DNA of 43,472 bases, taken from NCBI GenBank assembly GCA_938001945.1, contig CALLBH010000154.1, positions 1-43,472 on the forward strand. The letters run 5' to 3'. This document shows, in pieces, positions 22,987 to 41,642 of the stretch (positions are counted from its first letter, which is position 1; the number at the start of each line of letters is the position of its first letter). The notes under the pieces were generated by a model that made no database searches, was not told the origin of the DNA, and saw only the letters and a list, made by a program, of their open reading frames with translations. The position numbers and the translations under genes are program-made. This stretch comes from an uncultured Robiginitomaculum sp. Lineage in GTDB: Bacteria; Pseudomonadota; Alphaproteobacteria; Caulobacterales; Maricaulaceae.

Positions 22987-23576
22987 GCCAAGCCAAATTA
23001 GATATTTTACTCCGCGATATTCGCGCCTGCACATTTTGCGAAACGGCGAGCCCGCCTCTGCCGCATAAAGCGCGGCCCATATGCATTGGTACGTCGAAAT
23101 CTAAAATCCGTATCATCGGCCAAGCCCCAGGCAATCTGGTCAACATATCAGGCAAGCCCTTTGATGACCCAAGCGGTGTTCGTCTGCGTGAATGGCTGGG
23201 CGTGGATGAAGCGCAATTTTACAATGCAGATCTTTTTGCGATCACGCCAACGGGGTTTTGTTTCCCAGGTTATGACAAAAACAAAGGCGATTTGCCCCCG
23301 CGCAAAGAATGCGCGCCGCTGTGGCAAGATAAATTAGACGCGGCGATGGCGGGCATCCCGCTGACATTACTCGTCGGCGGATACGCGCAGAAATGGGTAC
23401 TGGGCAAAGACGCCAAACGCACGCTGACGGACACTGTTAAACATTGGCGCGATTATGGCCCGAATACAATTCCGCTGCCCCATCCGTCATGGCGAAATAA
23501 TGGCTGGATTAAAAAGCATGACTGGTTTGCTGACGTTATTGAGCATCTACAAGAAAGAGTCGCCAGTTTAATTTAG
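22983..23576 (+). CDS. Uracil-DNA glycosylase superfamily protein (family-4-like)
   Basis: GQAPG, PFDDPSG, LPHPSWRN; Cys pattern CxxC...C-x16-C; ATGA overlap with the polymerase stop. Confidence 0.85.
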   Translation: MSQAKLDILLRDIRACTFCETASPPLPHKARPICIGTSKSKIRIIGQAPGNLVNISGKPFDDPSGVRLREWLGVDEAQFYNADLFAITPTGFCFPGYDKNKGDLPPRKECAPLWQDKLDAAMAGIPLTLLVGGYAQKWVLGKDAKRTLTDTVKHWRDYGPNTIPLPHPSWRNNGWIKKHDWFADVIEHLQERVASLI

Positions 23577-25610: not shown

Positions 25611-25611
25611 T

Positions 25612-28600
25612 TTAGCCCGGCTGCGTTGAGAGGATAGTCACGCGGCCTGCTGGCGTTATCGCAACCTCGCCAGGGCGATACATATCTTCGATCACAACGC
25701 CGGGGATAGTGAAGTCGCCTGCCGTAACGGCGCGCACCACATAAGCAATGCGATGACGACTTTGATTTTGCGTCTTAAGCGAGGCGACAAAACGGTCATC
25801 TCGCGCTTCGGCGATTTCAAGCTCTGCAATCTCGCCAACCCATGCATAAGGACCGGCATTATTATCTTCCCTCTTACCATCTTCGGGGCGAAGGATCGTT
25901 TCGATCTCAAACCCAGCCGGAAGAAGGTCCGCAATAACAGTCTGCCGAGAGCGGCTAATGGTCGAACGCATCGAAATAAGAATAACAGCCTGATCACCTT
26001 TCTGCATCGCGGCAAGGCTAATAGATTCACCGGTTATGGATAAGACTTTTTTCTCAGCATCATAACCTTCTGCGAAAGCTGCGGGGGCGCGCGTCGGTGT
26101 TCCGTAAATACTGATGACGCGGTAAACATCGCGCTCCCCTGTATTTGAGAAGCTGACATTCTGCGCTAGATAATCGCTATCTAATCCAACTGTGTTTTGA
26201 GGATCAAACCCATCAACCCCTTTGGCCGAAACCTTAAGCTCTGCTCCGCCCAGTTTAATCGCGCGCATCGCCATAATTGTGCGGGCTTTTTCCTGAGTAG
26301 ACAGGCGCTTAGGGTCTTTGAGGCTGGATGCAAATATTGTCTGCGCCTCAGAAATGCGGCTTGGCATCTCTGCTTCGGCCGCAAGCGCGACTAAGGCTGC
26401 GCTGTCGCGAAGTGGAGATTGGTAATAATTATTCTCTTCCTCATAGCCGATTGCTTCGAAAGCAGCATCGAATGCAGAATTCGCGCGGACTTTATCGCCC
26501 ATCATTGCAAAGGCTGTTCCGATTTGCGCAAAGCTCATAGGCGAGCGTAAATTCTTGCGGTGCGTATCGTAGAAGTAACGCATCTTGGACAAATCGCCTT
26601 GGCCGCCGCGCGCGAGAACATAATGCGCATAGGCCGCTGTCTCCGCTTGAGTGCCTTTGTATCTGCTTTGATTGCGATTACGACGATAACGATAGTCCAA
26701 GTAAGCTAGAGACGAATAATTCTCCATCCGCGTCATTTCTTGTAGCGCGCCATAAGAGCGCTTCATCACATCCTCAGACACGTCATAGCCTTCTGCTTCA
26801 GCGCGTTGCAGGAACTCTGTTGCGTAGGCGCCCAGCCATGAATGACCTGCATAATCGCCTGCTCGCCACAGTCCAAAACTTCCTTGGTCATCCATGCGAT
26901 TACTGATTTTATAAACCGCATTTTGCATGCGGCGATTTAATTCCGCTGCGTCCTGTCGCGGCATACCGCCCAGATCATCGGCGTAGAGTAACGGCAGCCC
27001 TGAACTGATTGTTTGCTCGGTGCAGCCATAGGGGTATTTCGACAGGGACGCCGCATAGGATGCGGGGTCAAGGTCCGGCGACGGGGCAAATGATACATTT
27101 ATCTCGACGCTGTCCGGGTTAAGGCCCAGAGCTAAATCTTCAGGCAAGGCTAATGTTTGGCCCGCCGTCATGCGCGTTTCAATACGGCGCTCGACAGGCA
27201 TAAAGGGAGACCGGCTTTGAATTTGATAACTCGACTGAACTGTGTAGTTCTGTGGACCTGTTATATTCATCTCCAAATCACGAATTCCAGAGTCGTTAGA
27301 TGTCAGCGTTATCAATCCGCGCTCACGTTGCTGCTTGGCGAGTTGCACTTGACCTTTAGAGTCTGCATCTGCGGTCAAATCACCGCCGCTCAGCGCGTAA
27401 CCATAACTCCCCGCTTCGCCTTCGACATTATCAAGCGACACCGTCGCAATGGCTGTATCGCCCGGCGCGAGAAAGCGCGGCAAGCTTAGCGTTGCGGGTA
27501 CAGGGTCGCGCACCTTCATGGCTCGGCTAGCGCTTCCAACTGCTGTGTCATTCCACGCCGTTGCCATAAGACGAATTTCGCCGTTAAACTCAGGCAGCTG
27601 TAGCGGAATGACCGCCTTGCCGTTTCTGACATTTATTACGCCAGAAAATAGTGAGACAATTTTCGTTGGGGCGACAGTCAAACCTTCACCGCCAAGACTA
27701 TCCCCGCCGGAGCGCGCTAAGGTCGCCTCACCAAGATTTGGATTAAGCAGACGTGCATAGTCATCACGTAGTTCTAATCCAAAGGCCTTCTTACCGAAGT
27801 AATGCGCTGCTGCATCCGGGCTATCAAATTTCGTAATGCGCAATATGCCTTCATCAACGGCGGCCAGGGTCAGATAGTTTTGCCCATCTTTCATTCCGTC
27901 TATATTCACGGTTACATTTTGAATTTGACGCGGGCGCGTCACTTCGGGTGCATCAATCGAAACATTCAATGTCTGCTCTACAGCTCGAATTGGAATATGT
28001 ACAAGGCCAACAGCGCGGCGCGGGACCGGCCGTTCAGTTTTATCACGCGGCGTGTAGAGCGTAATCAAACCATAGACACTTGCGCCCCAATCCTTGTCGA
28101 CTCGTACACGAATTGTGCTGCCGCCTTCAGGAATCGTGATCGGGCGAATTTCATGAATCTTGTCGCTAGCAATAACAAGCTCTCCTTGACCCGCATATGG
28201 CGCTTTGAGCGTAAGTTCCGCATACCTGCCGGGCTGCGTTGGCTCTGTTGGTCCGGCCATAACAAGTTGATCTGGACGATCACTACGGCTCGCGCCGCCC
28301 CAGCCAACGCTAAATTTGTAAGAGGCGCTAACATTAGTCTCGGCATCTGTGACGATAAGGCGGTAACGTCCCCAATTTAAATTTTGTGTGACTTTGCTTA
28401 GGCCATCGGAGCCTGTTGTTATCTCTCCACTATCGCGCAGACTATCATTGATCGTGAAGCGATACCGCCAGCGGCTACGATTCCGATACCAAACATAATC
28501 CCAATCTTCATAGACCAGTTTCCATTCCAACGTTTTGGATTGCGGCGCGCCCATAGCATCGAGCGCAACAATATCTAAATCGAAGGGCTTGCTGCGCTGC

Positions 28601-30537
28601 GCGCGATTACCGGTGAACCCGGGGCGAATGCCGAGATACACGTCATTTGTGCGCACAGGAACGCGGGCTGAATTTTTGATATAGCGTCCGCCCGGCTCGG
28701 CAATCCCAGCAGTAATTTCGCCGCGCAAGGGATAGCTAGACTTGATATTGTAGCCAGATAAGGACGCCTCAGTTTCCAGCTCGCCTTTTGCATTTGTGAG
28801 GCCTTGGACAAGAACAATATTTTGCTCGCGGAATGTTTCACTTGCGAGGCCAAATGTGAAATCATCATATTTTGGGAATGGCTTGGGATCGACGCGCACG
28901 CGCATCTCGGCTTCCGCTTCTAGATCTTTACCCGGTCCGCCATATAGAAATTCACTGGCCAGAGTGATTGTGACGTCATTATCATTTGTGATGACGCCTT
29001 CATCTGTTTTGATATCTACCTTAATTTTTTGCGGTACGAAATCTTCAACTGAAATTGAGTGTGAGCCGATTAGGTCTAAACCGTCAGCATGCAGTTCTAA
29101 TGTCCACAAACCCCGCGGCGCAGATTCAGGCAGACCAAAACTATGGGCAAGCGCGCTCCCCAATAGCTCGCTTTCGGTAAAGCGCTTTTCTAACGCAACA
29201 ACACCATTCGGACGAATAAGCTTAAAAGTGCCTTCACGCGGTTGCGCTTTAGCGCGGTTATCCCGGAGCATCGCAATTATATTGACGCGCTCGCCGGGAC
29301 GATAAACGCCGCGATCCGTATAAATATAAGGATCGATAACTTCACCGGCGCTGCGTCCATTGACGTCTCGGTCTGATAAATCCAGCGGGCTGCGGCGCAT
29401 ATCCAGTATCGCATAATCACCATTTGGGCCATAGGCCATGACCATGCGCGGCGCAGCCGCGCCCGCGCCTTTAAGTAGCGCCCCGTCGAAACTGGCGTGA
29501 CCATTCACATCTGTTTTTGCTTCGCCTAAAATCCGGTTATTGCTCGCAACCAGTGTGACCCGTGCATCTGAAACGGTTTTAGCGGTATCTAAAGAGCGCA
29601 AAGTTACATCAAGAGCATCGTCCGTTTGATAGCTGGTTATTGCAATGTCTGTGACGATAACCCAGCGCCAAGCTTTGGCGGGTCGCCTCTCATTCTCACC
29701 GCGTTTCTTTTCTGCTGTGATGACATAGGCTCCAGGAGATAAATCGCCAATAATATCAGCGAGCGGAACAACAGTCGTCACGACTTTATTGCTTACGGTT
29801 TTAACATCAAAGCTACCTGTCCAAACCGTCTCGCGTACATTCGTTGCTGCATTTGCATAGGTATAATTATACTCCCCGTCAGCACTGGCCTGACCCGATT
29901 GCGGGTCTCGGCGCGCGATAATACGATCACCAACGGATGATATATCAAGTGTAATTTCATCAATATTAATTGTTTCAACCGCCAAACCCTGCGCGCCGAT
30001 ACGCGGGAGAATGACCCCGTCTCCTGCAAAACGTAGAACGGCTGGCTTGTCGCCAAAGCTAATGGCAACTTTGCGGTCCTCTAATAATTCACTACCACTC
30101 GTCGCGGGAAGGCCCGCCTTTATTGTGAGATCATATTCGGTGTCAAAATCAAAACCCGAAAGACAAGCTCTGGTTCCGCCCACTGAGGCCGCGAGTTTAA
30201 CATCCGGTTTCGTGACGATATAATCCGTGAAGCGCGTATTATCTAAATTGATAGAGGTTGAAAACCTTAAGCAGACTTTAGCGAGACTGCCACTCATGTC
30301 AGGCTCCCAGCCTTGGAATAATATGGGGCGCGGTACAGGCGCTCTGGCCGCCTCTTGAACAGCGACTGGGTCTTGCTCAGGCGCAATGTCATCGCGATCT
30401 CTTATATCTGCGGCGACGGGAACAGGCGTAGCTATACGTGGTTTGGGATTATCTTTTCCAATCAGAGCGTAACCCGCCCACCATGCTGTAAAAATGAGTG
30501 CAATGATCGCGGCGATCAAGCCAGCCTGCTTGTTCAT
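25612..30537 (-). CDS. Bacterial alpha-2-macroglobulin (YfhM/ECAM-like)
   Basis: 1641 aa; TDRGVYRPGE, VEDFVP, LAAVDEG, LPRFLAPGD; thioester motif YPYGCTEQ; paired with pbpC. Confidence 0.93.
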   Translation of the reverse strand: MNKQAGLIAAIIALIFTAWWAGYALIGKDNPKPRIATPVPVAADIRDRDDIAPEQDPVAVQEAARAPVPRPILFQGWEPDMSGSLAKVCLRFSTSINLDNTRFTDYIVTKPDVKLAASVGGTRACLSGFDFDTEYDLTIKAGLPATSGSELLEDRKVAISFGDKPAVLRFAGDGVILPRIGAQGLAVETINIDEITLDISSVGDRIIARRDPQSGQASADGEYNYTYANAATNVRETVWTGSFDVKTVSNKVVTTVVPLADIIGDLSPGAYVITAEKKRGENERRPAKAWRWVIVTDIAITSYQTDDALDVTLRSLDTAKTVSDARVTLVASNNRILGEAKTDVNGHASFDGALLKGAGAAAPRMVMAYGPNGDYAILDMRRSPLDLSDRDVNGRSAGEVIDPYIYTDRGVYRPGERVNIIAMLRDNRAKAQPREGTFKLIRPNGVVALEKRFTESELLGSALAHSFGLPESAPRGLWTLELHADGLDLIGSHSISVEDFVPQKIKVDIKTDEGVITNDNDVTITLASEFLYGGPGKDLEAEAEMRVRVDPKPFPKYDDFTFGLASETFREQNIVLVQGLTNAKGELETEASLSGYNIKSSYPLRGEITAGIAEPGGRYIKNSARVPVRTNDVYLGIRPGFTGNRAQRSKPFDLDIVALDAMGAPQSKTLEWKLVYEDWDYVWYRNRSRWRYRFTINDSLRDSGEITTGSDGLSKVTQNLNWGRYRLIVTDAETNVSASYKFSVGWGGASRSDRPDQLVMAGPTEPTQPGRYAELTLKAPYAGQGELVIASDKIHEIRPITIPEGGSTIRVRVDKDWGASVYGLITLYTPRDKTERPVPRRAVGLVHIPIRAVEQTLNVSIDAPEVTRPRQIQNVTVNIDGMKDGQNYLTLAAVDEGILRITKFDSPDAAAHYFGKKAFGLELRDDYARLLNPNLGEATLARSGGDSLGGEGLTVAPTKIVSLFSGVINVRNGKAVIPLQLPEFNGEIRLMATAWNDTAVGSASRAMKVRDPVPATLSLPRFLAPGDTAIATVSLDNVEGEAGSYGYALSGGDLTADADSKGQVQLAKQQRERGLITLTSNDSGIRDLEMNITGPQNYTVQSSYQIQSRSPFMPVERRIETRMTAGQTLALPEDLALGLNPDSVEINVSFAPSPDLDPASYAASLSKYPYGCTEQTISSGLPLLYADDLGGMPRQDAAELNRRMQNAVYKISNRMDDQGSFGLWRAGDYAGHSWLGAYATEFLQRAEAEGYDVSEDVMKRSYGALQEMTRMENYSSLAYLDYRYRRNRNQSRYKGTQAETAAYAHYVLARGGQGDLSKMRYFYDTHRKNLRSPMSFAQIGTAFAMMGDKVRANSAFDAAFEAIGYEEENNYYQSPLRDSAALVALAAEAEMPSRISEAQTIFASSLKDPKRLSTQEKARTIMAMRAIKLGGAELKVSAKGVDGFDPQNTVGLDSDYLAQNVSFSNTGERDVYRVISIYGTPTRAPAAFAEGYDAEKKVLSITGESISLAAMQKGDQAVILISMRSTISRSRQTVIADLLPAGFEIETILRPEDGKREDNNAGPYAWVGEIAELEIAEARDDRFVASLKTQNQSRHRIAYVVRAVTAGDFTIPGVVIEDMYRPGEVAITPAGRVTILSTQPG

Positions 30538-30743: not shown

Positions 30744-31619
30744 ATGTCTATTAAAAAACTTGCTTTGGCGGCTGGCGCTGCCACACTTATGACTGCATCA
30801 TCTGCTTATGCTTCAGTCATTGACCGTCCGTTCTTCAAAGTTCTCGGCGTCGTCGTTGTTTGGGGTGCTGATGATTTTGACAGCAATAGCGGTAACGCAC
30901 CTGTAGTATCTGACTTTGTTCTTTTGACAACAGGCAGCGGTAACGCTGGTGCAGACCTTATCGGCGGCGCAGCTGCAGATACATTTGCTGTTGTCACTGG
31001 CGACCTCGTCCCTGTTGACGGCGCAGACGCGTCAGGCGGCGGAACAGTTGACCCAATTACCGGTCAAACATCTGGCGGCGCGTTTACAGACGCTAACTCC
31101 GATGGTCTTCTTGATGCAGGCGATTCATTGTCAGCATTTGGTATCGACGCAACGACTGACATCGACGGTTCATTGTCAAATGTCCATAAAGGGTCATTCT
31201 ACGTTGCATCTAATGCAGCATTCGACATCTATGCGTCTTCATCAAACACAGTCGCAACAGGTGACTTCTTGGTGGACAGCCTAGACGAGAGCAACATCTC
31301 TTTCGAGCTTGCTGTTTCAACAACAGCTCCAGCCTCTATGGCCTCTGTCGGTACTGCCGCGCAGGATCCATCAACAGGTGGTTCAGGTGTTGTCACAACA
31401 GTTGACAGTCTTGATGACATGACAACAGCAACAAAAGTCTTTGATGGCGGACAGCGCACAGCTGCAACGCGCGGCTCTATTGCTGAACAGTCTGTTCGCT
31501 TTGACGCAACATATGCTTTGCTTGATCCAACTGGCGCAGCCGGAGACCAAGGTTACGACCTGTCTATGGGTTCTGGTACATTACAGGCTGACGTAACTTA
31601 CACAGTTTACGTCCCTTAA
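30744..31619 (+). CDS. Secreted acidic beta-rich protein; putative major filament/pilin-like subunit
   Basis: Sec signal ending AYA; rich in Gly/Ala/Ser/Thr/Asp with no Cys; Dx[DN]xDG loop; C-terminal alternating strand GTLQADVTYTVY; followed by a terminator and a chaperone-like gene. The CDS is solid; the function is inferred. Confidence 0.6.
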   Translation: MSIKKLALAAGAATLMTASSAYASVIDRPFFKVLGVVVVWGADDFDSNSGNAPVVSDFVLLTTGSGNAGADLIGGAAADTFAVVTGDLVPVDGADASGGGTVDPITGQTSGGAFTDANSDGLLDAGDSLSAFGIDATTDIDGSLSNVHKGSFYVASNAAFDIYASSSNTVATGDFLVDSLDESNISFELAVSTTAPASMASVGTAAQDPSTGGSGVVTTVDSLDDMTTATKVFDGGQRTAATRGSIAEQSVRFDATYALLDPTGAAGDQGYDLSMGSGTLQADVTYTVYVP

Positions 31620-31644
31620 TCAGACCAAAAAGTTCACGCTTTTG

Positions 31645-31676
31645 ACGGCCTCCTGCTCACGCAGGGGGCCGTTTTT
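31645..31676 (+). terminator. Intrinsic terminator after the putative major subunit gene
   Basis: ACGGCCTCCTGC-tcac-GCAGGGGGCCGT (12-bp stem with one G-U pair) followed by TTTT. Confidence 0.85.
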
Positions 31677-31742
31677 ATGACGTAATGGTGATGTAAACAC
31701 GCCTGCTGCCTTTAACGAATGCCAAACGCTTTTTTCGTATCC

Positions 31743-31758
31743 TTAGTCAACACTTAAC
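31743..31758 (+). promoter_or_regulatory. CtrA-like site upstream of the chaperone-like gene
   Basis: TTAG-TCAACAC-TTAAC, 8/9 to TTAA-N7-TTAAC. Confidence 0.45.
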
Positions 31759-31770
31759 GCTGATGGGAAA

Positions 31771-32628
31771 ATGATTATGGGATTTCACCGCTTTAAAAAG
31801 CTTGCCGCCACAACGGCTATGACGGGCGCAGCTCTTATTGGGCTTACATTTGGCACAGCGCATGTTGCCGGCGCATTTGGGGTCGGCGTGCAGCCCAGCA
31901 CGGTGGAAATGACAGTTAAACCGGGCGACCGGCAGCGCCAAGTCGTGACAATCGGAAATGTTCACAAAACAAAGACCATTAGCTTGACCATGGGCCTTGC
32001 CGACTGGAGCCTTGATAAAAACGGAAAGCTTGTCCTGGACGCGCCCGGTGAAACGCCGCGCAGCGCCTCTGATTGGGTGCGCTTCTCCCCTGCGTCTGTC
32101 ACGCTAAAACCTGAAACGTCACAGGATGTTGTTGTAGAGATCAATGTTCCGGTAAAAGTTGCTGAAAAAGGCGACCACCGTTTTGCGCTTCTTGCAACAA
32201 CATTGCTGCCTGAACTTGATCAACGCGGCGATATTTCCGGCGTGTGGAACCGGTATCAGCTTGCCTCGCTCTTTTATCTTACGCTCACGCCTTCATCCAG
32301 CACCCCTGTCGTGCAAAGCGTTGCCTATAAAAGCGGTGACGCCCCGATGCTAACGCTGGAAATAAAAAATGAAGGTGACGCCCATGCCCGCCTCCAAGGC
32401 CTTGCAACAATTAAAAACGCAGCGGGCGACACCGTCTCCGAAACACCGCTATCTACTGTTGTGCTTGATCGCCACAGCCGCACTTATGACGTCAAAATCG
32501 TTGACGGCGAGAACATTACAGCCGGCGAGTATAGCGTTGAATTTGATATGAATAATATCTTCGCACCGCAAAATAAGTTCCGCAGTACGGATGTCGATGT
32601 CGACACGATAACATTTGTGAATGAGTAG
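31771..32628 (+). CDS. Periplasmic pilus-assembly chaperone-like protein (PapD/CsuC-like, two Ig domains)
   Basis: Signal peptide; VGVQPSTVEMTVKPG...VTIGN; WVRFSPASVTLKPETSQDVVV; second-domain motif LEIKNEGDAHARL. Start 31771 or 31777. Confidence 0.68.
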   Translation: MIMGFHRFKKLAATTAMTGAALIGLTFGTAHVAGAFGVGVQPSTVEMTVKPGDRQRQVVTIGNVHKTKTISLTMGLADWSLDKNGKLVLDAPGETPRSASDWVRFSPASVTLKPETSQDVVVEINVPVKVAEKGDHRFALLATTLLPELDQRGDISGVWNRYQLASLFYLTLTPSSSTPVVQSVAYKSGDAPMLTLEIKNEGDAHARLQGLATIKNAAGDTVSETPLSTVVLDRHSRTYDVKIVDGENITAGEYSVEFDMNNIFAPQNKFRSTDVDVDTITFVNE

Positions 32629-32652
32629 CCTCGCGCCTCTATAAAAGGATAT

Positions 32653-33492
32653 ATGAATAAGGCACTCCTAAGACTTACCCTAACTAGCTTGGCTGCGCTC
32701 GCGGGCGCGGTACCGGCTTCGGCTAGTTTTTTGGATAGTGATTTCTGGTGTCGCACCTATGGCTGCGCGGTTGTCTATGACAGCCAGTCCTATGAGATTT
32801 ACGATAATTATCAATTCGCGACAGGTCGGTGCTGCATCGCTTACGGCTCGCCTATGCCGACATATTATAACCCTATTCAATCTTTGCGGACAACGGGCAC
32901 TACAGACATACCCGACGCAGCCCCGCAAGACGGTGAAGGCTTTGGGTTTGACATTATTGATGGGTCGCAAGTCCTGACCCGTAATGATGATGGCGACGGC
33001 TATCTTGATGCATCGGACAGTTTCTCTGCGTTCACGCTCTCTAGTGAAACAGATCTTCGACTGGACGCCAAAGGCCAAGCCTACAGCCACAGTTTTTGGA
33101 TCACATCGCGCAATACGCGTTTTTCTCTGCGCGCGCGCGCAAGCATCAGTGACGTCTCAGGTGATTTTGCGAACACACTGACACTCGGCGACATCAAACT
33201 TGATACAAATGTCTCGACCTCCGGTAACGACAATGGGTTTCAATATGGATCTGACGCCACAGGACAGAACGTAACCATATTAAATGGCATTGACGATCTC
33301 GGCGATCTGGCAAGCAATCCAACGCGCCTCATTAATTTTGGTCGTTTCTCTGGCGTACGCACGCGTAATGGAGATTTAGCGGATCAAACAATCCGCATCG
33401 ATTTCAACTACCGCATGCCCGATTACGACATGTCCATGGGGATTGGCGAAATGAATGTCGACGTGGTTTTTGATTTTTACCGCGAGCGGTAG
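32653..33492 (+). CDS. Secreted paralog of the 30744 protein; putative minor/tip subunit
   Basis: Signal peptide ending ASA; colinear conserved blocks shared with the 30744 protein; four Cys near the mature N-terminus. Confidence 0.6.
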   Translation: MNKALLRLTLTSLAALAGAVPASASFLDSDFWCRTYGCAVVYDSQSYEIYDNYQFATGRCCIAYGSPMPTYYNPIQSLRTTGTTDIPDAAPQDGEGFGFDIIDGSQVLTRNDDGDGYLDASDSFSAFTLSSETDLRLDAKGQAYSHSFWITSRNTRFSLRARASISDVSGDFANTLTLGDIKLDTNVSTSGNDNGFQYGSDATGQNVTILNGIDDLGDLASNPTRLINFGRFSGVRTRNGDLADQTIRIDFNYRMPDYDMSMGIGEMNVDVVFDFYRER

Positions 33493-33497
33493 ATCAC

Positions 33498-34088
33498 CTA
33501 CTCCGGTGTCTTCACAGCTATGCTGTAGACATGATTTTCAGGATATTGATCTCGCTCTAAGTGAACAGGCTCTAGCCCGTAGCCCATCAAGATATTCAGA
33601 TTTTCTGAAATTCCAATCGAGCTATACTCAAATTCGTGCCCGCGCCAATGATCCACATGACAACCAATGGCATCGCCAAAACTATGCATCAACACGCCGC
33701 CTGAATTAAGCAAGCTACAGAGCTTAGCCAATACAGGTTTTTGATCGCGCAACGGTAAATGAAACAAACTATCCCACGCCAAAATGAAGTCGAATGTATC
33801 AACAGCCTTCCACTGTTGAATTTCACTATGATGGAATACTGCATCAGGATGATGAGTTCTCGCGCGCTTTATCATCTTTATTGAGGCATCAATGCCCGTC
33901 ACCTCAAACCCGCGCGTCTCTAATCTCTTTATGAACCGCCCGCCACTGCCGCAGCCCACATCAAGCGCTTTACCTGACGACGTTGCGTAACTTAGAGCTC
34001 GCTCAAATTGCGGCACACCATAATCGGAATCGAAATGTTGCTCCGTCCAGAACGGCGCGATGTCGTCATATTTTAGACCAATATCCAT
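33498..34088 (-). CDS. Class I SAM-dependent methyltransferase
   Basis: ALDVGCGSG, VTGIDAS, FDFILAWDSLFHL, LNSGG. ATG at 34088 preferred over the TTG at 34115. Confidence 0.85.
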   Translation of the reverse strand: MDIGLKYDDIAPFWTEQHFDSDYGVPQFERALSYATSSGKALDVGCGSGGRFIKRLETRGFEVTGIDASIKMIKRARTHHPDAVFHHSEIQQWKAVDTFDFILAWDSLFHLPLRDQKPVLAKLCSLLNSGGVLMHSFGDAIGCHVDHWRGHEFEYSSIGISENLNILMGYGLEPVHLERDQYPENHVYSIAVKTPE

Positions 34089-34169
34089 GACGTCTTTTGC
34101 ACTAAAAAACGGCAAGCAGAAAGCCTAATCAAACTAGACAGGCCCGCCTGCGTTTCCTAACTCTTGTCT

Positions 34170-34823
34170 ATGAAAACAACTTACAGACTTACCTGCGCTG
34201 CCCTAACCTGGGTCACAATACTCGTTCAATATTGGATCATGGTCCAAAGCGGTGAATTTGGCAGTTTTGGCGCGGCGACCCTGACCTATCTGGGTTACTT
34301 TACGGTGCTGACCAATATACTAGCCGGTATAGCCTTTGCGACGCCGCTGCTTAACTCGGGAAATAAACTGCGCGAGTTCTTTGATCGCCAAGCCGTACGC
34401 GCGGCAATTGCGCTCTATATCCTTATTGTCATGGTCGTCTATTGGGCTTTGCTGGCCAGCATTCATAATCCAACAGGCATCTCAGCGATCGCAAATATCG
34501 GCCTGCATCTCGTGATTCCAATCCTGTTTATTTGCGACTGGCTGTTCTTCTCAGCCAAAGGAAATATGTCTTACAAACATCTGCCTTATTGGACGATCTA
34601 CCCCGTGCTTTACGGCGTTTTCAATATCGTCAGAGGCTTGATGACGGGCTTCTATCCCTACCCGTTTTTGAACGTTGATGAGCTGGGCTATGGCGGCGTA
34701 TTTATTAATATGCTCGGCTTTATGTCGATTTATATTTTTGGCGGTGCGGCCTTCATCACTATTGGATGGTTCTTGTCGGCTCGGAAGGAAAAGACAAAGC
34801 TAACCGTCAGCGAGTTTGACTAA
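34170..34823 (+). CDS. Pr6Pr/FAR-17a/AIG1-like membrane protein
   Basis: About six TM helices; YFTVLTN, a conserved His in GLHLVIP..DW, and GFYPYPFL. Confidence 0.78.
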   Translation: MKTTYRLTCAALTWVTILVQYWIMVQSGEFGSFGAATLTYLGYFTVLTNILAGIAFATPLLNSGNKLREFFDRQAVRAAIALYILIVMVVYWALLASIHNPTGISAIANIGLHLVIPILFICDWLFFSAKGNMSYKHLPYWTIYPVLYGVFNIVRGLMTGFYPYPFLNVDELGYGGVFINMLGFMSIYIFGGAAFITIGWFLSARKEKTKLTVSEFD

Positions 34824-35615
34824 ATAGGCCTGTTTGCGTTTCTCACCCTTCTTTTCCAGATGTGCTGAGATTGGCGCAAGCAAGCTGGGGAATGTCATGA
34901 CGAGCCCGCCTGTGCGGCCATCACCGCGCGGCAGCCATGTTTCCATCTTGCCTTTGTCCATAGCTTTTAATGCCGCTTGAGCAATCACCTTTGGGGGCGT
35001 TGGATCGGCGCTCCCGACAAAATTCATTGGCGATCCGTCGGAGCTTGCCATTTCATCGGCGAGCATCGCCGTATCTACTGCGCCCGGAAATAGGCTGCCC
35101 ACATATACGCCGTGTGATTTAAGCTCCATCGACAAAGCCGCCATGAACCCGCGAAGACCAAATTTTGATGCGGAGTACGCCGCGCTATTTTTAAGCGGCA
35201 CAATACCAGCTAGAGAAATGATAGAGAATATCCGCCCCGCCCCGCGCGATTTCATGGCGCGCGCAGCAGCGGCGCACAATATCATCGGCGCCGTGAGATT
35301 GATATCTATATGCGCGCGCAAAACATCATCAGAAATATCGCTCACAGCTTTGGGCACGATAATGCCCGCATTATTGATCACCAAATCAATAGGATTATCT
35401 GTGCTTTCTATGCGCGCGCAAAGCACAGCAAGATCATCACGGCTTGTCAGATCCCCTACAATGCACTCCGCGCCGCCGCCAATGCGCTTTGCAATCTGGC
35501 CTAATGCAGCGCTGTCACGATCCGTAAGCACAAGACTATAACCCGCATCCAAAAGCTCTTGCGCCAGCGCCTGCCCTACGCCGCCTGCGGCGCCCGTTAC
35601 TAATGCCGTTTTCAT
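34800..35615 (-). CDS. Short-chain dehydrogenase/reductase
   Basis: TGAAGGVG, NNAG, YSASK (YxxxK); ATGA overlap with the upstream FMO gene. Confidence 0.9.
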   Translation of the reverse strand: MKTALVTGAAGGVGQALAQELLDAGYSLVLTDRDSAALGQIAKRIGGGAECIVGDLTSRDDLAVLCARIESTDNPIDLVINNAGIIVPKAVSDISDDVLRAHIDINLTAPMILCAAAARAMKSRGAGRIFSIISLAGIVPLKNSAAYSASKFGLRGFMAALSMELKSHGVYVGSLFPGAVDTAMLADEMASSDGSPMNFVGSADPTPPKVIAQAALKAMDKGKMETWLPRGDGRTGGLVMTFPSLLAPISAHLEKKGEKRKQAYLVKLADG

Positions 35616-36964
35616 TCTGCGGCCTCCAATAGCGGCGCTTTGCGAATAGCATCAAAATGTCCGTCACCAATCGCGTCCCATTTCATGTGTTTACGCAGCG
35701 CGCCCAGTTCCCGGCGCATAGCGTCAAGATTTACATATGTTGCATGACGATCACTGGCCACGTATTTTACGCCGCCAGTTAGTTTCGGCTGGTGGCTCGC
35801 TATGCGGTTTTGCAGGCGCTCCCAGCTGGCCACATCATCGCGCTGCGCGATGATTGTGCGGCCAATCATATCGGCCATTTCATCGAATAATTTGTAAATC
35901 CCGCCATTGGTTTCCGTAAAGCCAAGGGAGAACAATTGCGGGTTCGCCGCAGAATACATGTGAAGGTAATTATCGGGACGGCTGCCTTTCCAAGAGAAAT
36001 GTTTTGGATCAACATAGGGAACTTTCCAGTCATATCCTGTAGCGCACAGCACAATATCAATCTGCTCGCGGCTACCATCCTTAAAGACAACATCCGAACC
36101 TTCGAGGCGCTCAACATCGCCTTTTGCGCGAATATCGCCATGCCCCAAATAATGCAGAAGCTGCGTGTTCATGATGGGGTGGCTTTCGAAAATCTTGTGA
36201 TCAGGCTTCGGCAATCCCAAGCGGCTAATATCCCCATTGATTAAGCGCAGTAATCCGCCAAATATCTTTTGTGACATCCATAGCGGTAGATGCGGACCTT
36301 CATCGGCAAAGACATCGGCAGGTTTGCCCATAATGTGCTTTGGGATAAAGTGATAACCGCGACGAACGCTTATGAAGGCTTTGTCGGCTGTTGTCGCCGC
36401 GTCGCACGCAATATCGCACCCTGAATTGCCTGCGCCCACGACAAGCACGCGTTGGCCTTTGAACTCATCCATATGGTGGAAGGTTTGGGCGTGACGCACT
36501 TCGCCGTCAAATTCATCACTGGCCCAACTCGGGAGTTTGGGATGCCATGTCGTCCCTGTGACGCATATCAACCAACGGTATTCACGGGTTTCACCTGTGG
36601 ATAGCTCGACCGACCATGTGTCGTCATTAAACTCTGTTTTAGCGACTTCGGTATTAAATGTGATGTGATCGTAAAGACCAAACTCCGACGCAAAGCTGCG
36701 CATATAAGCTAAGATTTGTTTATTCGATGGATAGTCGGGGTAGTCCTCGGGCATGGGATAACCTGAAAAATATGAATGTGTTTTGGACGAAATAAAATGC
36801 GCCGATGCATACATCGGAGAGCCAGGATTTTTTGGATCCCAAATTCCGCCAACATCGCTATGGCGTTCGAATATATCAAAATCGATGCCGCGAAGCTTAA
36901 AGGCTCTCGCAAGGGATAGGCCACCCGGGCCTGCACCAACGATACATACTTTGTTATTGCTCAT
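35612..36964 (-). CDS. Flavin-containing monooxygenase (class B)
   Basis: GAGPGG, GGIW, FMO fingerprint FDGEVRHAQTF (FxGxxxHxxxF), GAGNSG, ATGY. ATG at 36964 follows a GAGGA RBS. Confidence 0.9.
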   Translation of the reverse strand: MSNNKVCIVGAGPGGLSLARAFKLRGIDFDIFERHSDVGGIWDPKNPGSPMYASAHFISSKTHSYFSGYPMPEDYPDYPSNKQILAYMRSFASEFGLYDHITFNTEVAKTEFNDDTWSVELSTGETREYRWLICVTGTTWHPKLPSWASDEFDGEVRHAQTFHHMDEFKGQRVLVVGAGNSGCDIACDAATTADKAFISVRRGYHFIPKHIMGKPADVFADEGPHLPLWMSQKIFGGLLRLINGDISRLGLPKPDHKIFESHPIMNTQLLHYLGHGDIRAKGDVERLEGSDVVFKDGSREQIDIVLCATGYDWKVPYVDPKHFSWKGSRPDNYLHMYSAANPQLFSLGFTETNGGIYKLFDEMADMIGRTIIAQRDDVASWERLQNRIASHQPKLTGGVKYVASDRHATYVNLDAMRRELGALRKHMKWDAIGDGHFDAIRKAPLLEAAE

Positions 36965-36984
36965 GTCATTTTCCTCGCCATATG

Positions 36985-37034
36985 TAATATGAGTGTTGCT
37001 CATGTTATTAAAACGTGATAGTTCCTCATTTTAA
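36985..37034. promoter_or_regulatory. Putative tandem TetR operators in the divergent FMO/tetR intergenic region
   Basis: TAATATGAG-tgttg-CTCATGTTA inverted repeat (8/9), plus a degenerate second copy TGA..GTT.CTCAT 26 bp downstream. Confidence 0.6.
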
Positions 37035-37057
37035 GAATTGCAAGTCAAAAATTATTC

Positions 37058-37687
37058 ATGGAATTTTCCGCTATGACACAAACAATCAATATTCGTAAAA
37101 AACCCGTACAAGCGCGAAGCCGTGCCCGCGTCGATGCGATCCTTAATGCAGCAACCAAAATCATTGCCGAAAATGGAAGCGGCGGCCTTAAAATGAGCGC
37201 CGTCGCTGCGCGAGCAGGCGTTCCAATTGGAACCGTCTATCAATTCTTTCCCAACAAAAATGCGATCATCCACACGCTAGCCCAAGATTCGATGGAGCAA
37301 GTCCGCATTGCGCTAATTGAGAAGTTCGCAGATTTTAAAACTTTGGATGACGCAATAGAAAAAATTGCCCAATCCGTTTTGGAGTATTTCCGGTATTTCC
37401 GGCAAGAGCCCGCTATCCGTGATATTTGGTGCTCCACGCAAGGCGATAAGCTTTTGCAAGAGCTCGACATTGAAGACAGTCGCGTGAACGGGGATATCTT
37501 ATTTGAAAACCTAAAACCGTTCTTTGATCCCACATCCTATGAAGCCCTACAATCAATGTGCTTTCTAAGCATGCAGCTTACGGGCGCCGCTATACGTTTA
37601 GCCATCACCCAAGATACGAAAACCGCGAACCTTATCCTTGAGCAATATATCGCAATGATCCGCGCCCAAATTCGGCATATCCACTAA
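37058..37687 (+). CDS. TetR/AcrR-family transcriptional regulator
   Basis: PVQARSRARVDAIL, HTH region VAARAGVPIGTVYQFFPNK; divergent from the FMO-SDR genes. The start may be 37073. Confidence 0.92.
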   Translation: MEFSAMTQTINIRKKPVQARSRARVDAILNAATKIIAENGSGGLKMSAVAARAGVPIGTVYQFFPNKNAIIHTLAQDSMEQVRIALIEKFADFKTLDDAIEKIAQSVLEYFRYFRQEPAIRDIWCSTQGDKLLQELDIEDSRVNGDILFENLKPFFDPTSYEALQSMCFLSMQLTGAAIRLAITQDTKTANLILEQYIAMIRAQIRHIH

Positions 37688-37690
37688 GTC

Positions 37691-37727
37691 AAAAAAAGAC
37701 GCGGTTGCTATGGTGAGCAACCGCGCC
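37691..37727 (-). terminator. Intrinsic terminator downstream of the usher-like gene
   Basis: Stem CGCGGTTGCT/AGCAACCGCG with a 6-nt loop and a T7 tract on the minus strand. Confidence 0.85.
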
Positions 37728-37743
37728 AAGTTGGTGTTCTATC

Positions 37744-40700
37744 CTAAGGTGAACCGATGAGGACGCCTTCACCCTCATCTGATCCAATATCTGGCGGTGG
37801 GTCGTCTGGCGGAACGTCATCCACACTCGCAAATTCCGTTTCTTTGCCTGCTGGCCGCGCCGCGATACGGGCGCGCGACATTAACTCGCTTGAAGGATCG
37901 AGCGTAAGCGTTACACCCTCACCCGGTATTGCGCCGCTATTATTGGTTTTCACCAAGGTGATCGCATATTCCCCCGCAGGCAGGTCATCAAAGGCATATT
38001 GCCCGAAACTCGTTGTGACAGTTTCGCGAATATCGTCTTCATCAGCAGAGCTAACAAGTTTAAGGCGCGCGCCCTCAAGGCGGGTTTCACCTTTTTCAAA
38101 TTCACCATTCCCATTATCATCGATATAGGCAAAGCCGCGAATTTGGCCGCGCTGCACGACAGGTAAATCAACAGTAGTTATATGTCCGTCGCGTATTGTT
38201 GCGCGCAGCAAAGTCTCATCAGACAATGCGTAACCGAGCGGCAAGCTACGATTATCCAGCGTAATCGTTTTAATCCCGCTTTTGATGTTCTGAATAGTGT
38301 AATAGCCATCACCATCCGTGCGCAGACCGAGTTTACGGCGGCCATCCGTCACGCGAAGCACAACAGCGCGCAAACCCGGCTCATCTTCTTGGCGAACGCC
38401 GTCACGGTTTTTATCGAGGAATGCTCGACCTTTCAAAACGCCGCGGCCGTCTTGAGTACTCGAGAATTTACGCGCTTCATTATAGCGATAACGCCCATCT
38501 AACCGGATACCAAAACGCTGCTCGCCTTGAAGATCGTTTCGGTAGGTCAAACCTAGAGAGAGGTTATCATTCAGGCGCAAACGACGACCTGCATTTAGCG
38601 TGAAATATGTATCAGCCTCGCCGCCCCCTTGCCCGCCAAAGCTTTGCAGTACGCCAAAACTAGCGGTTACGTTGTTTTGCTTACCAAACATTTCGCCAGA
38701 GTCTGCCGTAGCAACCACGCCGCCGCGCAGGAAGCTTGCCTCTGGTGTCCATACAGCATTGACCGATGGTCCAATCGAGACAGTCGCTTCTTTTGGCAGG
38801 GCAAAGTTCTTAGCCTTAAGCGACACCGCAACATCCGCGCGCTGGCGTTTGTCATTATCGCCGCGCTGTGTTTCGCTATATTGCGCGCGCACTGTACCAT
38901 ATTTGAAGTTCTGATAGCTTTGAACCGTCAGGCCATAGCCTTCTTCGTCTTTCTCTGGCTCCGCCACATAATCCTGCGAATACTCAGTGTAACTTGCGGT
39001 AATATAAGTGTTAGTTTTGGCAATCGACGTTGATGCCGTAATGCCCCAATTGTTGAGGTTCACTGCTTCGTCACTGCCCACAGAGACGCCGGATGTGGAG
39101 CGCTGCATCGTTAAGGCCGCGCCAGGGTTTTTGAAAATACCAATATCACGTCGCGCGCTATATTGCAGAGAGGCAGATAGCCCGGCCTGATCTTGGCCTT
39201 CGCGGCGAATATCAGGAATAGTTTCAGTATCACCGCTATCTAGCTGATTTTCTTCAAATCTTGCTAGGCGCTCTTCTAAGGCTTCACGCGAGAGCACAGA
39301 TTTAAGGAACTCAGAGCCATCATAGCTCGCGGTTATATCAAAATCCCAATTCTCGGCAAATTCAATACGCGCCGAACCATTTGCGCGCGCGTCAAATGAC
39401 TTAGCGCGGTCCGGCCCTTTAAAGTATCCAAAGTCCGTGCGGGCATCCCATGTAAAGCCGCCAATTTTCTGGCGCCCCAAACGGCCACTTATCAAAGACA
39501 ACACTACGCGCTGATCTTCGGTCATGTCATCACTAAGCAAGGACAAGCCCGCTTCCCAGCCCTCAGCGTCCGCCCAGCGCACACCTGCCGCTAGCCCGCC
39601 AAAGGTGAAGCGGTTTTGATCGTCGCTAACCTGTTCGCTGCCATTTACGGGCGCGCCAACAGCCAAAGCCCAGCGGCCATGCTCGCTGGACTGCGTCGCG
39701 CTTGCCCCGCGAATACGCCGAACGCCGACCCCGTCAAGTTCACGGTAGTCGGCGGAATAATCCCCAAATGAACCGGACAAGCCGTCCAGCGTTCGATATT
39801 GAAGCGAGCCCCAGCTTGGTTGGAGTTCTCCGCCGCTGGTCGGGAAATCCGGTATCTCATATCGAAGCCGTCCATTTATGCCTTTGGCCCTAAAGTCCAG
39901 TGTAGCTTCGTTGCGAATATCTATCCCGGTGGTAAATGACAGCGTTTCAACGGTGAAAGGCTCATCCTTGGCCAAATCATCAACCCGCTCGCCTGGCGCT
40001 ATCGCGCCAGTTAAGCGCTCATCCAGCGTAATATCGACGCGATCAGAGCCCGGATCCACAGCAATATGTGTTCCGGTCAAGGCTTCAAGCGCGCTAACCG
40101 GCAAGAGTAAATTGGTTTGGTCGATATATGTCGCGTCTTTGCTTATCCCAACGGGGCGGCCCGCATCACGGATAAGACCTGTGGTCAGATTAAGCTCAAA
40201 TTCCGCGCTATCTTGGGCGCGGCGGATGGTGACGGTGGTGCGATCGGGGCTAACCGTCACAAAACCGCCAAGTTCATTAGCGATGGGGATAAGGGGCAAT
40301 AAGAGAACAGGGCCAACCGACTTTGGCGCCGGTTCGGGATTATTGATCCGAATGCCATCAACATAGATTTGAAAGCCTGTCGCGACTTTCAGGCGAGGAT
40401 CGAGTTCAAAATGCAGAATTTTGGCTTCTGCGTCATATTTTGGGCGTGCCCCAGATAAAACGGCAATGGCGTTTGGCGTTAAAGTGATAGAGTTTTCAGT
40501 AACTTCGCCAAATATTCTCAACTTACCAATCGCCTTGCCATTGGCTTTGATGATGCCCGTATCGGTATAAAGCTCCATTTTCACGCCGTCTTGGCTGCGG
40601 TTCACGACCAATGCACCTGTCTCGCCGTTAAATTCATAAGTGTCGTTGAGATAATCCAGTATCGGCTCTGCGCGAACAAAAACGTGGCCATCTTCATTTT

Positions 40701-40959
40701 TGACAACTTGAATACCCGGTAAGTCTTCGCCTTCGATAGTGACGGATAAATCAGGCTCTGGCGTGGCGATTAATTTGTTCTTTATGGGCGCAGGCTTTAT
40801 GGCCTCTGGCGCGCTTTCTGTTTCAACCGCGGCCTTTGGCGAAGTATCGGCTATTTCCTCTGCGCTAATCGCAGCAGGCATAGCAAAGACGAGAACCGCA
40901 AATGCAGCGATCAGCCATGAGCGCAATGCGCTAAACAGTGGAGTGATGCGGGCGCGCAC
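37744..40959 (-). CDS. Large outer-membrane protein, putative atypical fimbrial usher with C-terminal SdrD-B/CnaB-like domains
   Basis: Signal peptide; two N-terminal repeats; a long run of amphipathic beta strands; two C-terminal domains with FLDKNRDG...EPGL and YIDDNGNG...E.RL, and TDGDGYY and TTSFGQYAFDDLPAGEY. The usher role is inferred. Confidence 0.6.
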   Translation of the reverse strand: MRARITPLFSALRSWLIAAFAVLVFAMPAAISAEEIADTSPKAAVETESAPEAIKPAPIKNKLIATPEPDLSVTIEGEDLPGIQVVKNEDGHVFVRAEPILDYLNDTYEFNGETGALVVNRSQDGVKMELYTDTGIIKANGKAIGKLRIFGEVTENSITLTPNAIAVLSGARPKYDAEAKILHFELDPRLKVATGFQIYVDGIRINNPEPAPKSVGPVLLLPLIPIANELGGFVTVSPDRTTVTIRRAQDSAEFELNLTTGLIRDAGRPVGISKDATYIDQTNLLLPVSALEALTGTHIAVDPGSDRVDITLDERLTGAIAPGERVDDLAKDEPFTVETLSFTTGIDIRNEATLDFRAKGINGRLRYEIPDFPTSGGELQPSWGSLQYRTLDGLSGSFGDYSADYRELDGVGVRRIRGASATQSSEHGRWALAVGAPVNGSEQVSDDQNRFTFGGLAAGVRWADAEGWEAGLSLLSDDMTEDQRVVLSLISGRLGRQKIGGFTWDARTDFGYFKGPDRAKSFDARANGSARIEFAENWDFDITASYDGSEFLKSVLSREALEERLARFEENQLDSGDTETIPDIRREGQDQAGLSASLQYSARRDIGIFKNPGAALTMQRSTSGVSVGSDEAVNLNNWGITASTSIAKTNTYITASYTEYSQDYVAEPEKDEEGYGLTVQSYQNFKYGTVRAQYSETQRGDNDKRQRADVAVSLKAKNFALPKEATVSIGPSVNAVWTPEASFLRGGVVATADSGEMFGKQNNVTASFGVLQSFGGQGGGEADTYFTLNAGRRLRLNDNLSLGLTYRNDLQGEQRFGIRLDGRYRYNEARKFSSTQDGRGVLKGRAFLDKNRDGVRQEDEPGLRAVVLRVTDGRRKLGLRTDGDGYYTIQNIKSGIKTITLDNRSLPLGYALSDETLLRATIRDGHITTVDLPVVQRGQIRGFAYIDDNGNGEFEKGETRLEGARLKLVSSADEDDIRETVTTSFGQYAFDDLPAGEYAITLVKTNNSGAIPGEGVTLTLDPSSELMSRARIAARPAGKETEFASVDDVPPDDPPPDIGSDEGEGVLIGSP

Positions 40960-40968
40960 GGCGCGGAC

Positions 40969-41448
40969 CTAACAGATCGGCAATTCCATACGCGCCAGAC
41001 ATGCAGCATTTGTGCTGCATTGACGGTTTACAGAGACAGGGACTTTCGACCAGCCGCCACGTACGGAATTATAAACCTCTACGCTGACGGGCGTGTCGGT
41101 CAAGTTGAACCGGAATTGCTGCTCAAGTACAACTTGCTGACGGCCAAGTGTCACCTTGTCCGACAGTTTCCGGGACAACATTGCTTCCGCAGTATTGCTT
41201 TTTGTTTGATCGCCCATAGGGATTTCGCGGCGACATTCGCCCACGACCCAATAGGCCTTATTCAAACCGGGATCGACGATAAATGCCGTATCCCCATCGA
41301 CGATTTCAAGCAGTAGCGGGGTATTCCCCGTCTCCTGCGCAGAGGACGGCAGGCCCACCATAAGCCCGATCATCCAAATCATCAAAAATTTAAGTAAAGA
41401 GTTCACTTCACCACCCATACACCAAGTTGCGATCTTTGCCGCATGCAT
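40969..41448 (-). CDS. Small secreted Cys-containing hypothetical protein
   Basis: Hydrophobic signal segment ending SSA|QE; four Cys in the mature part, one of them the last residue; stop 9 nt before the usher-like gene. True start probably downstream of 41448. Confidence 0.7.
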   Translation of the reverse strand: MHAAKIATWCMGGEVNSLLKFLMIWMIGLMVGLPSSAQETGNTPLLLEIVDGDTAFIVDPGLNKAYWVVGECRREIPMGDQTKSNTAEAMLSRKLSDKVTLGRQQVVLEQQFRFNLTDTPVSVEVYNSVRGGWSKVPVSVNRQCSTNAACLARMELPIC

Positions 41449-41600: not shown

Positions 41601-41642
41601 ATAATCAAAAATTTGATCCACTGGATCAAATTGTTTGATTAT
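41601..41642. repeat. 20-bp-arm inverted repeat overlapping the guaA stop codon
   Basis: ATAATCAAAAATTTGATCCA-c-TGGATCAAATT(g)TTTGATTAT: perfect apart from one bulged G. Confidence 0.85.

Follow-up and report, generated by a model that had tools for sequence, protein, structure and literature searches.

In the published description of the usher PapC, strands 5 and 6 of its 24-strand barrel have a hairpin between them, the plug sits between strand 6 and strand 7, and strand 13 is followed by a helix (PMC4356140). The plug is presented as a domain conserved in ushers, with roles in gating the pore and in activation, and the way in which it is expelled as not understood (PMC4356140; bioRxiv 2020.12.23.424195). 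Among periplasmic chaperones, the Pro59 and Arg89 pair of CsuC, in strands D1 and F1, is named as the most characteristic feature of the non-classical type (PMC4654587). The locus analysed here lies in a 43,472-nucleotide stretch of DNA (the window) from an uncultured Robiginitomaculum sp. (contig CALLBH010000154.1; assembly 76.7% complete), for which a sequence-only reading had proposed an undescribed chaperone-usher-like surface filament system split into two convergent halves. Its five genes, all confirmed in place as open reading frames, encode two subunits (A and B), a periplasmic chaperone, a large usher-like outer-membrane protein and a small secreted cysteine-containing protein (the Cys protein). 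Our analysis makes it very likely that all five genes form one export-and-assembly system and, on the predicted model, the usher lies outside the solved usher family by the two features tested, plug and strand number.

The nearest relatives by sequence are the uncharacterised DUF4402 (PF14352) clusters of Alphaproteobacteria, in which a chaperone gene lies between the DUF4402 gene and a gene for a usher-like protein of roughly 900 amino acids (aa). Their chaperones match ours at E values of 1e-7 to 5e-4, and their ushers (a set of 20 sequences, 5 + 15) gave a near full-length profile match to our usher family (probability 99.3%, E 1.9e-20, 779 aligned columns that include the N-terminal and both C-terminal domains), and are its nearest relatives. 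Unlike the present locus, the DUF4402 clusters are single co-directional operons with small pilins (153-197 aa) and no Cys-protein homologue found, and their ushers keep a plug-like domain after strand 6 and align to only one of our usher's two N-terminal domains. PF14352 was found in 0 of 44 subunits and 0 of 4 carrier genomes of the present system, with a control genome positive, and DUF4402-type ushers occurred in 16 of the 250 genomes of a class-wide sample. A row of DUF4402 pilin, chaperone, usher and two small pilin-like genes beside a response regulator was seen at loci L032 (6939-12163), L033, L034, L035 and L036. The term 'DUF4402' had no match in the open-access papers searched, so that this cluster family also seems undescribed there.

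Usher-like barrel and the strand 6-7 junction

The predicted model of the usher-like protein (mean predicted local distance difference test score, pLDDT, of 85) comprises two related N-terminal domains (aa 72-312), a barrel (aa 336-825) and two SdrD-B-like C-terminal domains (aa 838-1038) that are also matched by Pfam SdrD_B; model, fold search and family match together bear out the earlier call of a beta-barrel with Ig-like C-terminal domains. FimD and PapC took ranks 1-11 in a Foldseek search with the model (best E 2e-20), and the likeness extends to the strand 5-6 motif, the helix after strand 13 and the pair of C-terminal domains, whereas the duplicated N-terminal domain is unrelated. Porins stood level with ushers in the VIA fold ranking, and the longest structural alignment to the barrel was that of MtrB (Z 14.6, root-mean-square deviation (rmsd) 4.8, 408 residues aligned, 333-825). 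Against PDB sequences the usher profile returned SdrD-type domains only.

Model and alignments show no plug between the predicted strands 6 and 7. The strand 5-6 motif, recognisable next to that of FimD, runs straight into strand 7 with the FimD motifs of strands 7-9 directly after it, and the linker between strands 6 and 7 has 10 residues, versus the 94 that make up the plug-bearing linker of FimD. The aligned span at this junction measures 17-19 residues, with no insertion, in 77 of 77 rows drawn from both bacterial families that carry the system, while the DUF4402-type ushers have a plug-like segment at the same site (core motif in 17 of 20). Porins align continuously over residues 333-685 (about 290-300 residues), which leaves space for the helix loop but for no 80-residue insert. 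Across residues 428-547 model confidence is mostly >90, and the strands alternate hydrophobic and polar residues as membrane strands do.

Counted consecutively on the predicted model, the barrel has its helix after strand 13 as in PapC and 26 strands in total, against the 24 of PapC. Structural alignments to the barrel end near residues 646, 684 and 752 (porins and transporters), 786 (the FimD barrel) and 825 (MtrB). The first three, which we take to be 16-, 18- and 22-stranded proteins, end at counted strands 16, 18 and 22, and the FimD match ends at counted strand 24; the PapC alignment reaches 827, so that this cross-check is imperfect. The atypical usher layout remarked on in the sequence-only reading can now be specified as the lack of a plug, a surplus of two strands and the duplication of the N-terminal domain. 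A search of the open-access literature by titles and abstract starts for plugless ushers, 26-stranded ushers and Hyphomonadaceae fimbriae found no such system, and neither Pfam, the usher-family search nor that literature yielded a described clade for the locus, in agreement with the earlier failure to place it (the Nuccio and Baumler classification falls outside this scope).

The Cys protein has about 120 mature residues, beta-rich by sequence pattern, and four cysteines in 41 of 41 homologues; a 149-aa cluster member suggests a later start than that of the 159-aa open reading frame. It had no family match, its Atlas matches (0.81) were within chance, and it carries neither lipobox nor haem motifs. 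No kinship to pilins or usher domains was detectable, the similarity to the subunit family being confined to the signal peptide. It was not found in the 250 class-sample genomes, including the 16 with DUF4402-type ushers, nor in 5 more, and two genomes of the order (G160 and G137) have the usher without it. Because it tracks the plugless usher and not the DUF4402-type ushers, the Cys protein is the obvious candidate for a separate plug.

Subunits, chaperone and their predicted complex

A and B are indeed paralogous (31% over 178 aa, E 1e-14), and both belong to a family of large (about 270 aa), acidic and loop-rich subunits. The C-terminus of A combines Gly -14, alternating hydrophobic residues and a terminal Pro in 77 of 77 homologues; Gly -14 is shared with type 1 and P pili and occurs in five E. 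coli Fim subunits (FimA, FimI, FimF, FimG and FimH). The N-terminal extension of A, conserved directly after the cleavage site, holds a D-[RN]-P-x-F motif region in all 77 homologues. Signal peptides, called by eye from the sequence and from conserved Ala-x-Ala ends, agree with those first proposed. In the A model a confident beta-sandwich core with six to seven core strands begins at about residue 145. The terminator claimed after A is supported by a hairpin of -28.6 kcal/mol (66-nt stretch; z -4.5) that none of 200 shuffles matched in stability; it is absent from the list of a consensus terminator scanner, which lists the hairpin after the usher gene. C-ending codons make up 0.60 of the two-codon families in A versus 0.28-0.46 in nine other genes, and this high-expression codon use and the gene's own terminator fit A as the major subunit. 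In a tree of the quick kind, B stands as a separate, well-supported branch that spans the two families, and it has a Cys pair (33, 38) across its N-terminal extension; from its sequence we infer that it takes up a strand without donating one, a property of a tip subunit.

Calcium-binding loops had also been proposed for the subunits. The motif Dx[DN]xDG is present in A and B of the window, but among the A homologues just 9 of 77 have it, which led us to reject a conserved EF-hand-type calcium loop in all subunits; a relaxed form occurs in 21 of 77 versus 5.8% of shuffles, and G-x-[LI]-D-x-x-D in 74 of 77, so that the case for calcium binding is weak. Pfam and NCBIfam gave no family name for A, B or the Cys protein, PDB sequence searches with A, the chaperone or the Cys protein returned nothing useful, and A had no plasmid match. 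Fold matches of A were proteins of donor-strand filaments and comprised TasA, a bundling pilin, CfaB, FimG/FimH, CupE and TLP-1b, all at Z <=5.7 and under the background of 7-8. The best of them, TasA, archaeal bundling pili and TLP-1 (Z 5.7, 5.3 and 4.5, from an A model half of which is low-confidence), have no sequence match to A, and we know of no use of this chaperone and usher by TasA or bundling pili. TLP-1, an orphan fibril whose source organism is unknown, resembles A in its similar size, six core strands, long loops and N-terminal donor strand (PMC11494351). The named Atlas neighbours of A, obtained with homologue P0008, were SCPU (0.89, in 14% of members), WxL (0.88) and TasA, and serve as leads only.

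The source genome has two further A paralogues on other contigs (46-47% identity; L041:4294-5160 on contig C121 and L042:901-1824 on contig C31), which extends the set beyond the five genes first proposed; chaperone, usher and Cys protein are present there in single copies. Relatives keep orthologues of these paralogues at conserved chromosomal sites, such as next to a radA-like gene (L044, L046, L054), and the paralogue set is therefore old. In the second family a short subunit paralogue (160-230 aa) lies directly 5' of an A paralogue (L037:5188-5886, L038:6997-7575, L048:4024-4533, L050:6045-6530), and in two of the shortest the C-terminal strand is absent from the alignment. Metagenomes are rich in a 213-234-aa subunit subfamily that has no acidic loop region.

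The chaperone had no family match above cut-off, and its distant relatives matched PapD_N weakly (5 of 27 members). Pro107 is present in 93 of 93 homologues, Arg137 in 92 of 93 at a spacing of 30, and Arg207 in 93 of 93. The first two are equated with CsuC Pro59 and Arg89 by motif and spacing, not superposition, and all three correspond to EcpB Pro60, Arg89 and Arg148, the EcpB alignment being of low probability (1.2%, E 0.045) and pairing Arg207 with Arg148 and the anchor Tyr169 with Val231. By this Pro/Arg signature the chaperone is of the non-classical type. The signature and, on that low-probability alignment, the second-domain Arg are shared with the ECP, CFA/I (alternative) and Csu (archaic) pili, as are the donor-strand complementation geometry, here predicted, and the weak fold matches of A to CfaB, CsuA/B and CupE; the locus differs from those pili in the change, by the same alignment, of anchor Tyr to Val and in subunits of about 270 aa with a terminal Pro, and EcpC has a TcfC plug-type domain that is absent in our usher.

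The predicted complex of chaperone and A scored 0.78 versus 0.01 for the best of three controls, with runs agreeing in at least 81% of contacts and partner pLDDT of at least 86; of 157 solved complexes 116 reach the mark used for this score, as do 2 of 215 mismatched pairs. In the complex model, chaperone residues 158-167 lie along A 282-289, with A 283-289 paired in parallel register to chaperone 159-165, and the interface also takes in chaperone 36-44 and A 35-41. The predicted geometry is that of donor-strand complementation, which the sequence-only reading had proposed to look for.

Distribution and arrangement of the genes

The same 250 other Caulobacterales genomes were searched with A, usher, chaperone and Cys protein. 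A-family genes were found in 24 (8 of 50 genomes of the source's own family, 16 of 50 of a second family, and none of the 150 other genomes tallied by family), and each of the 24 has a full-length usher, an orthologous chaperone and B directly 3' of that chaperone, so that the two halves, which had been proposed to complement each other, do co-occur. The Cys protein is present in 23 of them and directly 5' of the usher in all 23. The 226 A-negative genomes include one full usher (G137), one C-terminal remnant (G087) and no Cys protein; three further weak usher matches covered the SdrD-like domains only. Among 350 genomes of a phylum sample outside the order set the subunit family occurred once, again in a member of the second family, and a subunit profile run against 1.84 billion representatives gave 368 matches at E 0.001 (50% identity representatives; the best 150 of 368 were viewed). 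Among named proteins, the closest are those of Robiginitomaculum, Fretibacter, Hellea and Litorimonas.

Usher loci (n=49, from the best 80 of 129 stretches of the genome collection) have the Cys gene immediately 5' of the usher in 42 cases; 6 are cut too near and 1, the G160 contig, is without it, which makes 42 of 43 testable loci. B and the chaperone converge on the usher in 11 of 49, and in 5 of 49, from both families, all five genes stand in the one contiguous cluster that had been sought elsewhere, with a usher-B gap of <200 bases in three. In Robiginitomaculum antarcticum DSM 21748 guaA is followed by the genes for the Cys protein and the usher, these by B, chaperone and A on the other strand, and A by alpha-2-macroglobulin and pbpC; gene order and flanks in the window are the same once five metabolic genes are taken away, and none of 109 loci held a match to these five. 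Because of this genome and of the usher-locus layouts, the convergent junction is the family layout and a frequent breakpoint. The convergent arrangement of the sequence-only reading is thus real and the family norm, and the split is a local 4.2-kb insertion; we rejected it as a special design. A horizontal-island origin was likewise rejected on the window-like G+C of the five genes (0.50-0.53) and their conserved chromosomal flanks. An unlinked usher gene has a precedent in Synechocystis (PMC4390875).

Two A-negative loci look like stepwise decay of the system: G087 (L027:5532-7067) has, at the usher's syntenic site, an open reading frame with the two C-terminal domains only, and G137 (L019:5525-8545) has a full usher and chaperone without subunits or Cys protein. 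Diverged but intact chaperones (30-43% identity) occur in ten second-family genomes (L020-L026, L028-L030; e.g. L020:6477-7334), at a conserved site beside Maf-like and phosphatase-like genes. DUF4402 clusters as clients of these orphan chaperones were found in 0 of 5 genomes tested, with a positive control for PF14352 only.

The flanks of the locus (Table 1) hold further features. A perfect 10-bp inverted repeat at 41610-41632, between guaA and the Cys gene and 5' of the usher operon, may be a terminator or a regulator site, and the alpha-2-macroglobulin and pbpC pair at 23568-30537, divergent from A, has the same neighbourhood in ten examined loci. Within the insertion a TetR regulator is divergent from the flavin monooxygenase and short-chain dehydrogenase pair (34800-37687), an ordinary catabolic module at the convergent junction. 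A Y-family DNA polymerase (IMS domains) followed by a uracil-DNA glycosylase-like gene (21682-22986) is ordinary as well.

Table 1. Features of the locus, in coordinates of the window.
Feature	Position	Strand	Remarks
Subunit A, likely major pilin	30744-31619	+	291 aa
Parts of A			signal peptide 1-23; conserved N-terminal extension 24-33; looped Ig/pilin core; C-terminal strand with Gly -14 and terminal Pro
Likely donor strand of A (residues 24-33)	30813-30842	+	putative role
C-terminal strand of A (residues 278-291)	31575-31616	+	pairs with chaperone in complex model
Terminator-like hairpin and T run	31644-31673	+	between A and chaperone
Periplasmic chaperone, non-classical type	31771-32628	+	285 aa
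Chaperone donor strand (158-167)	32242-32271	+
Subunit B, likely tip or initiator	32653-33492	+	279 aa; putative role
Interrupting block, outside the system	33498-37687		methyltransferase, membrane protein, short-chain dehydrogenase, flavin monooxygenase, TetR regulator
Terminator-like hairpin 3' of usher gene	37698-37727	-	consensus scanner
Usher-like outer-membrane protein	37744-40959	-	1071 aa
Strand 6/strand 7 junction of usher (aa 415-435)	39655-39717	-	plug of other ushers absent here
Small secreted Cys protein, first gene of usher operon	40969-41448	-	159 aa; candidate plug or usher accessory

Assembly model, alternative readings and meaning

We think it probable that the five genes make up a non-classical chaperone-usher pilus system with a full assembly mechanism. 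All five proteins would be exported by Sec, and the chaperone is predicted to lend its strand 158-167 to an open cleft beside the subunit's last strand. Chaperone-subunit pairs would dock on the two N-terminal domains of the usher and then move to the two C-terminal domains, where the 10-residue extension of an incoming A would displace the chaperone strand on the previous subunit. B would go first, as the tip, its extension probably tied by a disulfide, A would form the shaft, and two to four unlinked A paralogues could supply minor or alternative subunits, giving a fibre of large, heavily looped and acidic subunits whose likely use would be adhesion to marine surfaces. A plugless predicted pore would need another gate, and at rest it might be closed by the Cys protein, a tentative candidate, with conserved loops of the barrel or a lodged B subunit as alternatives.

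LptD and MtrB are 26-strand barrels filled by a separate protein, LptE and MtrA respectively. They offer a precedent for a plug from another gene, as an analogy only, with no sequence similarity to our proteins and a different cargo. The boldest form of our model, in which a 26-strand usher that lost its plug would be gated by a separate disulfide-bonded protein as an LptDE-like two-gene pore and would serve undescribed large looped pilins whose several paralogues are scattered across the chromosome, strikes us as doubtful. A gate made of barrel loops (436-453 and that after strand 13) or of a lodged B, with the Cys protein acting as an aid to usher folding or stability or as a cap, comes near an even prospect without reaching it, and would vary the gating step while leaving the preceding steps as they are. 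It is favoured by G160, which keeps the other four genes with no Cys protein detected, so that this protein is not strictly essential, by the conservation of the 436-453 loop in both families, and by the lack of profile similarity between the Cys protein and the relatives' plug. However, the near-constant place of the Cys gene 5' of the usher and its absence from the searched genomes with plug-bearing ushers point the other way, as does the long helix after strand 13, which is short or missing in the second family; the Cys protein also has no pilin C-terminal motif and is unlike the subunits beyond its signal peptide, which argues against a cap delivered by the chaperone.

Several observations weigh against the pilus system as proposed and bear on what else the locus could be. 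The usher had no match to Pfam Usher/PapC_N/PapC_C (PF00577/PF13954), for which the FimD control reached 1e-228, nor any sequence-level match to FimD or EcpC, and profile comparisons with single FimD, EcpC, EcpB and EcpA sequences were not significant; EcpC and the DUF4402-type ushers also miss PF00577, so that its lack alone is not diagnostic. A barrel-only profile test with and without the relatives' plug gave 11.5% versus 11.8%, a non-discriminating result in which other deletions scored as high or higher, and a full-length profile alignment sets that plug loosely over residues 449-545. Both would suit an ordinary usher whose plug was mis-modelled, part of 428-547 being a diverged plug and the barrel strands fewer, and the failure of a plug profile to find anything in the window's genome or the usher family is a weak silence since the FimD and EcpC controls were also missing from its top 30 rows; but the model confidence and membrane-like alternation across that region, the continuous porin alignment and the unbroken run of FimD motifs make this reading quite improbable. 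On the side of the subunit and its chaperone, the A model is poor at residues 19-100 (pLDDT <50), found no Foldseek match at E 0.001 and has a weak best fold match (TasA, rmsd 3.9, 134 aligned), the EcpB anchor Tyr aligns to a Val, Arg137 is not among the named interface residues of the complex model, and the complex score may stem from a resemblance to solved chaperone-pilin pairs. Kinship keeps the genomes from being independent observations, which makes the co-occurrence a pattern and not a statistic, and 10 A-negative genomes keep a more diverged chaperone without subunits (a subunit-profile search of 9 of these 10 gave no match).

We consider it unlikely that the subunits, once exported by chaperone and usher, assemble into a short fibrillum or an amorphous coat instead of a long pilus. 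Their large, acidic and loop-rich build and the SCPU and WxL leads would suit it, and usher-type systems can make non-fimbrial structures (PMC4390875), whereas A's own terminator and codon use are expected of a many-copy shaft subunit and its N-terminal extension is strongly conserved, features that leave the shape of the polymer unfixed. A usher-independent envelope module of A, chaperone and B, with the large protein and the Cys protein as unrelated neighbours, is barely plausible: 38 of 49 usher loci show neither B nor the chaperone in the sequence covered (up to 10 kb on each side) and the fold matches include the chaperone-free TasA and archaeal bundling pili, but the usher accompanies A in every A-positive genome and occurs as a full copy in just one of the others, contiguous clusters exist in both families, and no Pfam-type usher was found in any of the 5 carrier genomes tested.

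If the pilus system is as proposed, a working plugless usher lineage in two bacterial families would test which roles of the plug are essential and by what other means a very large outer-membrane pore can be gated. Cultured marine stalked bacteria (Robiginitomaculum, Litorimonas and relatives), in which these genes carry no annotation beyond 'hypothetical', would also gain a candidate adhesion fibre, and the pilin family, so far unannotated and with 368 representatives, could be matched to orphan fibres from environmental cryo-EM.

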